DNA from: Escherichia coli | GTDB lineage: Bacteria; Pseudomonadota; Gammaproteobacteria; Enterobacterales; Enterobacteriaceae | Strand: one strand, 5' to 3' | Length of the DNA: 64,000 nucleotides | NCBI RefSeq assembly: GCF_050320075.1 | Contig: NZ_CP190018.1 | Shown here: positions 5,125 through 54,460 of the stretch, one piece after another | How the letters are laid out: each line of letters starts with the position of its first letter | Position numbering within the stretch: position 1 is the first letter of the stretch | The notes under the pieces: model-generated | Seen by the model: the letters and a program-made list of their open reading frames with translations, nothing else | The model's database searches: none | What the model was told of the DNA's origin: nothing | Program-made: the position numbers and the translations under genes

Positions 5125-6217
5125 GGTTGTATTGCTGTGCCGTCCGGGCTTTGAAAAAGAGTGCGCCGCAGAAATTACCGATAAAGCCGGCCAGCGGGAA
5201 ATTTTCGGTTTTGCCCGCGTGAAAGAGAATGCGGGTTATGTCATTTATGAATGTTATCAACCTGATGATGGCGATAAGTTAATCCGTGAGCTGCCGTTCA
5301 GTTCATTAATTTTTGCCCGCCAGTGGTTTGTGGTGGGGGAACTCCTGCAGCATTTGCCGCCAGAAGATCGTATTACTCCCATTGTCGGCATGTTACAGGG
5401 CGTAGTAGAGAAGGGCGGTGAACTGCGTGTTGAAGTTGCCGATACCAACGAAAGCAAAGAGTTGCTGAAATTCTGCCGTAAATTCACCGTGCCGCTACGC
5501 GCTGCCTTGCGCGATGCGGGTGTGCTGGCGAACTATGAAACGCCGAAGCGTCCGGTTGTGCATGTATTCTTTATTGCACCAGGCTGCTGCTATACCGGTT
5601 ACTCATACAGCAACAATAATTCGCCGTTCTATATGGGCATTCCGCGCCTGAAATTTCCGGCAGATGCGCCGAGTCGTTCCACGCTCAAACTGGAAGAGGC
5701 ATTTCATGTGTTTATTCCTGCGGATGAGTGGGATGAACGCCTGGCGAACGGGATGTGGGCGGTGGATTTGGGCGCTTGCCCTGGTGGCTGGACCTACCAA
5801 CTGGTGAAGCGCAACATGTGGGTTTATTCCGTCGACAACGGCCCGATGGCGCAAAGTCTGATGGATACCGGGCAGGTGACGTGGCTGCGGGAAGATGGTT
5901 TCAAATTCCGTCCGACACGCAGCAATATTTCCTGGATGGTATGCGATATGGTTGAAAAACCGGCGAAAGTTGCGGCATTGATGGCGCAGTGGCTGGTTAA
6001 TGGCTGGTGCCGTGAAACCATTTTCAACCTCAAACTGCCGATGAAAAAACGCTACGAAGAAGTGTCACACAATCTGGCGTATATTCAGGCACAGCTTGAT
6101 GAACATGGCATAAATGCTCAGATTCAGGCGCGGCAGTTGTATCACGATCGCGAAGAAGTGACGGTGCACGTCCGCCGTATCTGGGCTGCGGTGGGTGGTC
6201 GTCGCGACGAGCGATAA
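5117..6217 (+). CDS. rlmM: 23S rRNA 2'-O-ribose C2498 methyltransferase
   Basis: 366-aa ORF recognised as RlmM (YgdE); 8-nt overlap with ygdD. Confidence 0.88.
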
Positions 6218-51445: not shown

Positions 51446-52302
51446 ATATCGCAATTGTGACAATAAATCAGGAGAATGCCGCAACAGCGAGCTGGCAGGC
51501 GGCGCAGGATTTCAGCGGTTGTACCCTGGCGCACTGGAAGATTGAACCTCAGCCCGCTGTGGCGGAACAGGTGCTGGATGCGCTGGTGGAACAGTGGCAG
51601 CGAACGCCAGCGGACGTTGTTCTCTTTCCGCCGGGAACGTTTGGCGATGAACTGTCGACCCGGCTGGCCTGGCGTTTACATGGTGCAAGCATCTGCCAGG
51701 TGACTTCGTTAGATATTCCAACCGTAAGCGTGCGCAAATCCCACTGGGGAAATGCGCTAACGGCGACGCTGCAAACAGAAAAACGCCCGCTATGCCTTTC
51801 GCTGGCACGTCAGGCGGGAGCAGATAAAAACGCCACGTTGCCCTCTGGTATGCAGCAACTGAACATTGTCCCAGGTGCGCTTCCCGACTGGCTGGTTAGC
51901 ATAGAAAACCTGAAAAATGTTACCCGCGACCCATTAGCTGAGGCCAGACGGGTGCTGGTGGTGGGGCAGGGCGGAGAGGCAGATAACCAGGAAATCGCTA
52001 TGCTGGCAGAAAAGCTGGGAGCCGAAGTGGGCTACAGTCGGGCACGAGTGATGAACGGTGGCGTTGATGCCGAAAAAGTGATTGGTATTTCTGGACATCT
52101 GCTGGCACCTGAGGTGTGTATTGTTGTTGGCGCTTCCGGCGCAGCAGCGTTAATGGCGGGCGTACGCAATAGCAAGTTTGTGGTGGCGATTAATCATGAC
52201 GCCAGCGCAGCGGTATTTTCACAGGCAGATGTTGGCGTGGTTGATGACTGGAAAGTGGTGCTGGAGGCACTGGTGACAAACATTCACGCAGAATGCCAAT
52301 AA
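51442..52302 (+). CDS. ygcQ: electron-transfer flavoprotein alpha-subunit-like (FixB-like)
   Basis: ORF 51409..52302; start placed at MNIAIVTINQ giving 286 aa; ATGA overlap with ygcR. Confidence 0.8.
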   Translation: MNIAIVTINQENAATASWQAAQDFSGCTLAHWKIEPQPAVAEQVLDALVEQWQRTPADVVLFPPGTFGDELSTRLAWRLHGASICQVTSLDIPTVSVRKSHWGNALTATLQTEKRPLCLSLARQAGADKNATLPSGMQQLNIVPGALPDWLVSIENLKNVTRDPLAEARRVLVVGQGGEADNQEIAMLAEKLGAEVGYSRARVMNGGVDAEKVIGISGHLLAPEVCIVVGASGAAALMAGVRNSKFVVAINHDASAAVFSQADVGVVDDWKVVLEALVTNIHAECQ

Positions 52303-52350
52303 CGTGCAGCCGGATGATCCTGCCTACGGTTTCGGGCTGGGGACTTGTAA

Positions 52351-53124
<774 letters not shown>

Positions 53125-53228
53125 ATCAGCATACTTGTCCTTAGCCTTCTGCAGTGACAGCTGGTAGTACAGCGTGCTTCTGGCCAGCCCTGCAGCCTTT
53201 AACAGGTCAGACTGGCAGTGTCCGCACC

Positions 53229-53750
53229 TCAGGCTCCGGATGACTTTCGTTTTTTCTCCAGCTCCTGGCGCTTTTTTTCCAGGAGATGCTCCTGCATGGC
53301 TTTCAGATATGCATTTTCTGCGCGAAGATAACGTAGCTCATTCTTCATCTCTTCCGGCGTCATGTTTGCCTCGTTTTCATGGGTATCATCAGAACGGGTC
53401 ATGCTTTTCTCCTTCCTGCGCCTGATAAAGGCCTCATTACCAGATTTGCGGTAGCCTTTTATCCAGTTTTTAACCGTGTTGTGGCTGGGAATGTTAAACC
53501 GGGCAGCTACCCGGGGTAGAGACTCAGAATGCCCGAGAGCATAAAGAACCACGCAAAGTTTATCTTCAGGAGAATAGCTACGCTTGTGTCTGCAATCCAG
53601 TGCCCGAGGACCGTGAAGAAGAAAAAGATTAATCCAGTGTGAGAGGCTGGTGTGAGAAAGTTGAAAGAGTTTTGCCGTAGAAATGATGCCTGCATGACCA
53701 GCCAGGTAATGATTTACAGCGGCAAGTTTTACTTCAAATGAATGTTTCAT
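53229..53750 (-). CDS. IS3-family transposase OrfA (HTH DNA-binding, leucine-zipper region)
   Basis: ORF 53229..53759; likely ATG start at 53748-53750 (MKHSFEVKLAAVNHY) giving 173 aa. Confidence 0.85.
   Translation of the reverse strand: MKHSFEVKLAAVNHYLAGHAGIISTAKLFQLSHTSLSHWINLFLLHGPRALDCRHKRSYSPEDKLCVVLYALGHSESLPRVAARFNIPSHNTVKNWIKGYRKSGNEAFIRRRKEKSMTRSDDTHENEANMTPEEMKNELRYLRAENAYLKAMQEHLLEKKRQELEKKRKSSGA
53271..53278 (-). other. candidate -1 programmed ribosomal frameshift site (A AAA AAG)
   Basis: Minus-strand A7G run about 45 nt upstream of the orfA stop, at the orfA/orfB overlap. Confidence 0.6.
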
Positions 53751-53801
53751 AAACTGCACCTTCAGATGTCAGATTATGTCCAACATTTGGGGTGCAGTTC
53801 A

Positions 53802-53819
53802 TCAAGCGTCGCATCAGGC
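53802..53819. repeat. right half of the REP split by the IS insertion (TCAA plus arm)
   Basis: TCAA + GCGTCGCATCAGGC, complementary to the left half at 52351-52365. Confidence 0.7.
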
Positions 53820-53884
53820 GCTGAATGTCGGATGTGGCGTGCAGCCTACAAATCACACAAATTCAACTCGTTACGAGTATCCCG

Positions 53885-54460
53885 TCAAAGCAATTTTTTC
53901 GCTAACGTCCAGACCCCGGTATTCGTGGTGGAAAGCGCCACAACACCCGCGTTAATCGCATTACGCGCATCTTCTTCATCGCACACCAGCCCGCCGGCAA
54001 TCAGCGGTTGGCGGATTTTCTCCGTCACCCAGCCCAGCACTTTAGGCATACAGCCTGGCAGGATCTCAATACAATCCGGATTCGATTGCGCAACTTGCTT
54101 ATCAATGTTGTGAAACGAAATCGAATCAACAATAAACAGGCGATGAATACAGAAAAAACCTTCCGCTCTTGCCGCTTTCAGCATCGATGCTTTCGTGCTG
54201 ATAATGCCGTCCGCCTCGGTCACCAGTTTCAGAAACTGAATCACCACTTCTTTGTTCGATGCGCCTTCCAGCAAATCAACATGAATAAAGGCATATTTTC
54301 CGGCGTTTTTAATCTTTTTAACGATATTACTGATGGTGCAGATATTGCCGTACAACACTGAAATAAACTGGCATTCAGAATCGATTGCCAGTTGCAGGCT
54401 GGCATTATCTTTAACGGCAGCAATCACCGGATTCTGGCGGAGCAGGTGTAAGAGGGGCAT
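53885..54460 (-). CDS. ygcP: GlpP-like glycerol-3-phosphate-responsive antiterminator family protein
   Basis: 191-aa ORF recognised as YgcP (G3P-antiterminator family). Confidence 0.8.
   Translation of the reverse strand: MPLLHLLRQNPVIAAVKDNASLQLAIDSECQFISVLYGNICTISNIVKKIKNAGKYAFIHVDLLEGASNKEVVIQFLKLVTEADGIISTKASMLKAARAEGFFCIHRLFIVDSISFHNIDKQVAQSNPDCIEILPGCMPKVLGWVTEKIRQPLIAGGLVCDEEDARNAINAGVVALSTTNTGVWTLAKKLL

Follow-up and report, generated by a model that had tools for sequence, protein, structure and literature searches.

Background

The closest described systems for the locus analysed here are the insertion sequences IS1397 and IS150, together with IS911 and the cellular gene dnaX. In IS150 (Vögele et al. 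1991, cited in PMC4066793), A_AAA_AAG is followed by a 3′ stem-loop, with the same −1 arrangement of reading frames and the same fusion logic as in the element considered below. IS1397 itself is listed by Sharma et al. 2014 in Table S4, cluster A_AAA_AAG_5, as "orfA, Fam IS3/grpIS150/IS1397", with 59 genes (PMC4066793); its entry gives Y for a Shine-Dalgarno (SD) sequence, Y for a structure, a longer frameshift product and the value true, and footnote 6 of that work states that −1 programmed ribosomal frameshifting (PRF) of the IS1397 cluster "can be safely inferred" (PMC4066793). According to the same survey, A_AAA_AAG or A_AAA_AAA make up 72% of the heptamers in IS1/IS3-family elements, the single tRNA-Lys(UUU) of E. 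coli makes A_AA.R motifs prone to shifting, and an upstream SD has a stimulatory role in frameshifting (PMC4066793). IS911 and dnaX resemble IS1397 in combining an SD-like sequence, A_AAA_AAG and a 3′ structure, and Table S4 gives IS911, too, the score Y/Y (PMC4066793). Neither signal, however, is homologous in sequence to that of IS1397; dnaX is a gene of the cell and IS911 a member of another IS3 subgroup. Stimulation by SD and structure is experimental for IS911 and dnaX, whereas in IS1397 it is predicted.

IS1397 is described, in work cited in PMC1525189, as a REP/PU-specific insertion sequence that is active in E. coli K-12. Its frameshift signal is already known: the element is named, RefSeq annotates the frameshift and the published survey lists it. 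Here, we analyse the copy present in a stretch of 64,000 nucleotides from Escherichia coli (contig NZ_CP190018.1 of assembly GCF_050320075.1; hereinafter, the window), in which a programmed −1 frameshift within an insertion sequence transposase had been proposed from the sequence alone (the original prediction), and compare its signal with those of related elements.

Results

The element and its insertion site

The A-run in question is hosted by an element of 1432 bp, delimited by the following features:

52370..53801, minus strand: IS1397 insertion sequence (IS3 family, IS150 subgroup), as judged by its ends, length and identity to a named copy
53777..53801, minus strand: left terminal inverted repeat TGAACTGCACCCCAAATGTTGGACA, matching the right repeat at 21 of 25 positions and starting with 5′-TG
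52370..52394, minus strand: right terminal inverted repeat, 25 bp, reverse complement TGAACTGAACCCCAAAACCTGGACA
53802..53805, minus strand: left copy of the target-site duplication TTGA, in the loop of a REP/PU palindrome
52366..52369, minus strand: right copy of the target-site duplication TTGA

In strain 28Eco12, the same locus carries a copy that is 100% identical to the window element and aligns exactly to positions 1214273..1215704, an interval tabulated as "IS3 ssgr IS150, IS1397, DR TCAA/TCAA" (PMC6963479); the 4-bp duplication given there as TCAA is the plus-strand reading of TTGA. On the basis of this identical, named copy, with the same length, insertion site, duplication and REP/PU target, and of the NCBI name of the exact OrfAB protein, the window element is assigned to IS1397. 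The RefSeq gene is a two-piece join labelled "IS3 family transposase; programmed frameshift", and newer RefSeq annotations read "IS3-like element IS1397 family transposase". The inverted repeats are imperfect, 25 bp long and of the TG…CA type, beginning with TGAACTG…, as in the IS3 family, and TTGA is within the 3–5 bp range of target duplications in that family. Membership in the IS3 family is indicated by these ends along with the match to the NCBIfam transpos_IS3 equivalog, the DDE/rve domain and the placement of orfB in the −1 frame.

When the element is removed, its flanks (52330..52365 and 53806..53835) combine into the palindrome GCCTGATGCGACGC-TTGA-CGCGTCTTATCAGGC, which is a REP/PU unit of the spacer between ygcP and ygcQ, in keeping with the published specificity of IS1397 for the REP/PU palindromes of BIMEs (cited in PMC1525189). 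Other E. coli genomes carry the empty site, with one TTGA, at 100% identity, and at least 80% of the reconstructed empty site is covered by one match in 4814 genomes. The ygcP–ygcQ site is empty in most E. coli genomes; the occupied site is common to at least 25 strains at 100% identity, 28Eco12 among them.

Reading frames and the slippery heptamer

Two reading frames lie in the element, and the A-runs of interest are where they overlap:

53229..53750, minus strand: orfA, 173 aa, with HTH DNA-binding domains; ATG at 53750, stop TGA at 53231..53229 included
52402..53337, minus strand: orfB reading frame, −1 relative to orfA, with no internal stop; HTH_21, rve core and DDE triad
53271..53277, minus strand: slippery heptamer A_AAA_AAG in orfA phase, the predicted −1 shift site leading to the 449-aa OrfAB
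53250..53255, minus strand: second A-run, GAG AAA AAA CGA, in a non-canonical phase and an unlikely shift site

OrfA contains the HTH_28 and HTH_Tnp_1 domains, and the exact protein is encoded on at least 1000 contigs in public collections. The overlap between orfA and orfB is 109 nt, at an offset of −1, which is the two-ORF organization of the IS3 family. Beyond its OrfA part, OrfAB matches HTH_21 and rve/rve_2/rve_3 in Pfam (2.3e-20 for rve), and the fusion covers the whole NCBIfam transpos_IS3 profile with a score of 383.6 bits (cut-off 160; 1e-114). The catalytic residues are intact (D-60-D-36-E, with K at E+7), and D, D, E and K are each kept in 71–72 of 72 relatives.

The original prediction had placed an A7G run on the minus strand at 53271-53278, about 45 nt upstream of the orfA stop, with the orfB frame open across it. 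We read AAAAAAAG at exactly this place (53278..53271, minus strand), and the distance is a fair estimate, given that 39 nt separate the last base of the heptamer from the orfA stop and 47 nt separate the first A of the run from the T of TGA. The orfA codons in this region are CTC CTG GAA AAA AAG CGC CAG GAG CTG GAG AAA AAA CGA AAG TCA TCC GGA GCC TGA, such that A_AAA_AAG (53277..53271), spread over the codons GAA AAA AAG, has the X_XXY_YYZ phase. The heptamer criterion of Sharma et al. 2014 is an in-phase motif within the overlap with the −1 frame open on its 3′ side, and this is the configuration observed: the orfB frame extends from 53337 to 52402 without a stop, and, specifically, no stop codon interrupts the −1 frame between the heptamer and orfB; the original prediction thereby withstands the refutation that it had itself named. 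Translation in the −1 frame from the heptamer onward, proposed as a check, yields a 449-aa OrfAB for which an identical protein exists in NCBI.

AAAAAAG occurs 18 times in the window, compared to 16.5 occurrences expected, and the heptamer by itself is not beyond chance. Its placement, in contrast, is unlikely by chance, with about 0.005 in-phase, same-strand heptamers expected in the 109-nt overlap (by arithmetic from the window count). A further AAAAAAG inside orfB (52469..52475, minus strand, …WNQKRIK…) is not in the X_XXY_YYZ phase, lies where there is no overlapping frame and is probably incidental.

To locate the shift within the overlap, we built four candidate fusions, with the −1 shift at the A7G run, at the next codon, CGC, and at two codons at or just past the second A-run, and looked up each by exact sequence in public collections. 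Only the fusion at the A7G run (…LLEKK-APGAGEKTKV…, 449 aa) was present in NCBI, under several accessions, as an IS1397 family transposase, a record that shows where RefSeq puts the shift, this placement being computational and non-experimental. The three other candidate fusions were absent from NCBI and the public collections in the exact-sequence lookup.

The tail of OrfA (53244..53294, minus strand) reads QEHLLEKKR / QELEKKRK (CAGGAGCATCTCCTGGAAAAAAAGCGC / CAGGAGCTGGAGAAAAAACGA), which looks like an imperfect tandem repeat bearing both A-runs. A repeat of this kind may have been the route by which a new slippery site arose.

Candidate stimulatory elements

Four predicted elements flank the heptamer:

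53230..53267, minus strand: 3′ hairpin of 38 nt, predicted stimulator, CAGG..CUGGAGA…UC.AUCCGG..CCUG, from folding
53289..53293, minus strand: SD-like GGAG/AGGA, possible upstream stimulator by the criteria of Sharma et al. 2014
53280..53294, minus strand: small 5′ hairpin CAGGAG-CAU-CUCCUG with the SD-like sequence inside, predicted by folding
53204..53229, minus strand: second predicted hairpin directly 3′ of the first, on weak evidence (71-nt fold, z = −2.16)

The operational criteria for the SD and the hairpin were drawn from 271 IS3-family members (PMC4066793). Under the hairpin rule, a structure of 17–140 nt starts 4–10 nt past the motif, has a ΔG of at least 7.6 kcal/mol and opens with a G-C or C-G pair followed by at least 3 more pairs (PMC4066793). 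The 38-nt hairpin opens with C-G, A-U, G-C and G-C, has a ΔG of 12.4 kcal/mol and begins at the 4th base past the motif, the smallest spacing that the rule allows. Folded alone, this segment reaches −13.5 kcal/mol (z = −3.3), with 1 of 200 shuffles folding as well, and the hairpin probably enhances slippage. Upstream of the heptamer, GGAG (12 nt away) and AGGA (13 nt away) qualify as an SD under the same criteria, and GGAG possibly enhances slippage by pairing with 16S rRNA. Independent scoring of the two elements agrees with Table S4 (PMC4066793), with Y/Y for IS1397 and N/Y for IS150.

The small 5′ hairpin that would enclose the SD-like sequence folds at −7.9 kcal/mol (z = −2.86), and folding of the wider 151-nt region is unexceptional (z = −0.95). 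A stem extension, GCGCC/GGUGC, that appeared in the first fold was rejected as part of the stimulator; it starts within the heptamer and is broken by common variants. A pseudoknot was considered and dropped, as the hairpin loop (53256..53240) has no complementarity of at least 5 bp with the next 150 nt. A scan of 52300..53900 against Rfam at E ≤ 10 gave only chance-level matches (E ≥ 1.9), with no frameshift-element family among them; an Rfam match is not defining for frameshift signals of insertion sequences, few of which are in Rfam. The orfA stop UGA (53229..53231) straddles the junction of the two hairpins, overlapping the first at its 3′ end and the second at its 5′ end, so that ribosomes terminating at the end of orfA would need to unwind the first hairpin fully.

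Relatives and the displaced slippery site

For comparison, we collected 9 IS150-subgroup elements from plasmids, with 34–46% identity (IS150, ISKpn8, ISBth10, ISEnfa3, ISLla3 and others), and added 80 loci from species-representative genomes, with 49–57% OrfB identity, most of these from Bacillales and the rest from Pantoea, Kosakonia, Enterobacter and one Moraxellaceae MAG. An intact orfA/orfB pair was present in about 70 of the collected relatives, and no relatives with 60–95% OrfB identity were detected in the scan of species-representative genomes.

In the approximately 70 relatives, the conserved OrfA motif …ENAYLKK carries an in-phase A_AAA_AAG, or in some cases A_AAA_AAA or A_AAA_AAC. 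Downstream of the heptamer comes a long-range stem, GCCUUAGUUC…GAAYUAAGGC (GCCUUAG…CUAAGGC), whose arms pair in 59–61 of 61 unique sequences, with compensatory changes of the types CG↔UA, GC↔AU and UA↔CG. The stem begins at the 7th base past the motif for 48 of 59 relatives; the hairpin that it encloses is 48–72 nt long. Individual relatives depart from this pattern: ISLla3 (L010) has U_UUA_AAA on AYLK in place of A_AAA_AAG, another (L082) has A_AAA_AAC (YLKN) at the slippery position, a third (L078) keeps AYLKK, yet has no in-phase heptamer, and two more (L085 and L009) look degenerate.

The position that corresponds to the heptamer of the relatives can be identified in the window:

53298..53304, minus strand: homologous position of the relatives' heptamer (…YLKK), where IS1397 reads G AAA GCC (…ENAYLKA), which is non-slippery

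The heptamer of IS1397 is instead on …LLEKK, 9 codons (27 nt) downstream of the position used by the relatives; as a consequence, IS1397 still uses the 0 frame for nine codons at which the relatives have already passed into the −1 frame. Thus, IS1397 lacks the positional homology that characterizes the IS150 subgroup, namely, a heptamer on …(E)NAYLKK and a stem at about the 7th base. IS1397 and 61 of 72 relatives share a distance of 128 nt between the Y codon and the R-S-T-x-Y-Y motif of OrfB, which implies that the regions are collinear and that the site moved by substitution rather than by insertion or deletion. A 9-nt deletion of the ancestral heptamer was rejected on the strength of the same equal distance.

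The same contrast holds for IS150, whose proteins are only about 43% identical to those of IS1397. In IS150, the heptamer is on YLKK, the hairpin starts from the 7th base and is 48 nt long, and there is no SD; in IS1397, unlike IS150, the heptamer lies 27 nt downstream, a hairpin of 38 nt starts from the 4th base, and there is an SD-like sequence. Nevertheless, in both elements the 3′ arm of the hairpin lies on codons of the conserved '…E/S-L-R' of OrfB, and with respect to the relatives as a whole, the 3′ arm in IS1397 is on homologous codons (I-R-S-L vs Y-E-L-R). IS1397 has a new 5′ arm, 24 nt farther downstream, a spacer of 3 nt compared to 6 nt, and a hairpin shorter than that of any relative. 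By these alignments, the IS1397 signal has the mechanism and architecture of the subgroup at a site that is not homologous in position to that of IS150.

We are inclined, with some reservation, to regard IS1397 as a case of natural turnover of a frameshift site, whereby the old heptamer was lost (AAA AAG→AAA GCC) and a new A_AAA_AAG was gained 27 nt downstream. If such turnover occurred, the 5′ arm and the SD-like sequence would have been gained as well, with the old 3′ arm and the 128-nt length kept. The 27-nt displacement seems to be undescribed in the sources compared, which lie outside the primary IS1397 papers and ISfinder.

Variation among E. coli copies

The frameshift region of IS1397 is present at 5238 places in 1720 of 5426 complete E. 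coli genomes, with up to 40 per genome, and E. coli variants diverge from the window copy by up to about 4%. Six variant copies were sampled, differing from the window by 0.4–4% over the frameshift region of approximately 290 nt. The A7G run is invariant in all six, which vary elsewhere in the region; the second A-run is altered to AAAAAG in one sampled copy that is still annotated as intact. In the 38-nt hairpin, the commonest variant (53237 G→A) replaces a U·G pair with U-A, and one variant (A→T at 53266) breaks a stem pair. A C→T change at 53283 in the 5′ hairpin keeps the pairing as G·U. Among the variants in the second hairpin (53204..53229), one is in a bulge, one changes G-C to G·U and one breaks a pair.

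Not every IS1397 copy is intact, as indicated by a Nissle-type copy (L095; E. coli ESM2.2, NZ_CP069630.1 3608854..3609139) that lacks 5 nt (CTGGC) of orfB about 85 nt past the heptamer and is flagged by RefSeq as a frameshifted pseudogene. Another sampled copy is truncated. The window copy is intact with respect to its inverted repeats, target duplication, both reading frames, DDE+K residues and heptamer.

Discussion

We consider it highly probable that the A-run is the programmed −1 ribosomal frameshift signal of IS1397, acting by slippage on A_AAA_AAG, because an in-phase heptamer is combined with an open −1 frame, RefSeq joins the gene at this place, the relatives carry in-phase heptamers, a hairpin follows and the cluster is listed in Table S4. 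The anatomy of the site, its phase and open frame, the identity of the element, its intact ends and catalytic residues, and the conservation are established by the sequences and their comparison. In the proposed mechanism, most ribosomes would start at the ATG at 53750, terminate at TGA 53231 and release OrfA, the DNA-binding protein of 173 aa. A fraction would slip back by 1 nt with AAA in the P site and AAG in the A site of A_AAA_AAG; both lysyl-tRNAs would re-pair on AAA AAA, leaving GCG as the next codon, and translation in the orfB frame to 52402 would produce the 449-aa OrfAB, which unites the HTH domains of OrfA with the DDE core. Slippage would be helped by the hairpin (53267..53230) and, possibly, by the SD-like GGAG. 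We infer slippage itself, its efficiency and the roles of these two elements from the arrangement of the site. The rate of frameshifting would set the OrfAB:OrfA ratio, with OrfAB sub-stoichiometric, and so would limit transposition.

The same frame could in principle be reached through transcription, with RNA polymerase adding one A at the A7 run, in which case the product would be 450 aa long (…LLEKKK-APGAG…). The homopolymeric nature of the site is compatible with such a mechanism, and Baranov and colleagues are said to have documented, in 2005, transcriptional slippage in insertion sequences. Efficient transcriptional realignment in bacteria generally needs about nine or more A/T, however, and a run of seven falls short of this. 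Some IS3-family elements are reported to use transcriptional slippage, in a study of IS1447 (PMC6211511). In IS1397, the polymerase would have no need for the exact tandem-tRNA phase or for an SD-like sequence and a hairpin at distances appropriate for PRF, and the relatives with A_AAA_AAC (L082) or U_UUA_AAA (L010) have ribosomal motifs rather than long homopolymers; we therefore view an origin of OrfAB through transcription as very unlikely. That ribosomes shift elsewhere in the 109-nt overlap, for instance at the second A-run (53256..53250), with the A7G run being incidental, appears extremely unlikely to us. The −1 frame is indeed open over the whole overlap, and the second run also consists of six A's and belongs to the apparent imperfect tandem repeat QEHLLEKKR / QELEKKRK; but it is phased G_AAA_AAA, not X_XXY_YYZ, it varies in a copy annotated as intact, the corresponding fusions are absent from NCBI, and its location inside the loop of the predicted hairpin would leave it with no downstream stimulator at the proper distance.

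Recoding might also be non-functional, the element being a fixed, inert relic in which OrfA and OrfB are separate proteins, if made at all, and the heptamer is a leftover. The decay of some copies, through the 5-nt orfB deletion of the Nissle type and the truncation, would fit such a history, and the ygcP–ygcQ insertion is common to many strains and hence not very recent. Against this stand the integrity of the window copy in its repeats, duplication, frames, DDE+K and heptamer, its 100% identity to many other copies in a family with up to 40 per genome, and the transposition activity that Clément et al. 1999 report for IS1397 in their title (cited in PMC1525189), such that an inert relic is, in our assessment, exceedingly improbable.

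With programmed −1 frameshifting at A_AAA_AAG as the preferred reading, the proposal in the original prediction that the run belongs to the standard IS3-family arrangement for OrfAB is borne out by the transpos_IS3 match, the "programmed frameshift" label of RefSeq and the listing in Table S4 (PMC4066793). Its suggestion that the element is potentially active is reasonable as far as sequence can tell, considering the repeats, the 4-bp duplication, the intact DDE+K and the thousands of places occupied across E. coli genomes. The search that it recommended for a stem-loop or pseudoknot was answered by the 38-nt hairpin, but with no pseudoknot potential, and of the two elements that it named for comparison, IS1397 proved to be the element itself, whereas the site of IS150 is not homologous in position, being 27 nt off.

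In practical terms, gene callers that ignore recoding would miss the 449-aa transposase and report two separate ORFs, orfA and a fragment of orfB with a GTG start. With the signal, ends and catalytic residues intact, this IS1397 copy is best treated as potentially mobile and REP-targeting. Past correct annotation, the signal is of little importance, and any novelty would lie in the displacement of the slippery site alone, which would be a small, clean example of a recoding signal migrating along a gene at constant length.
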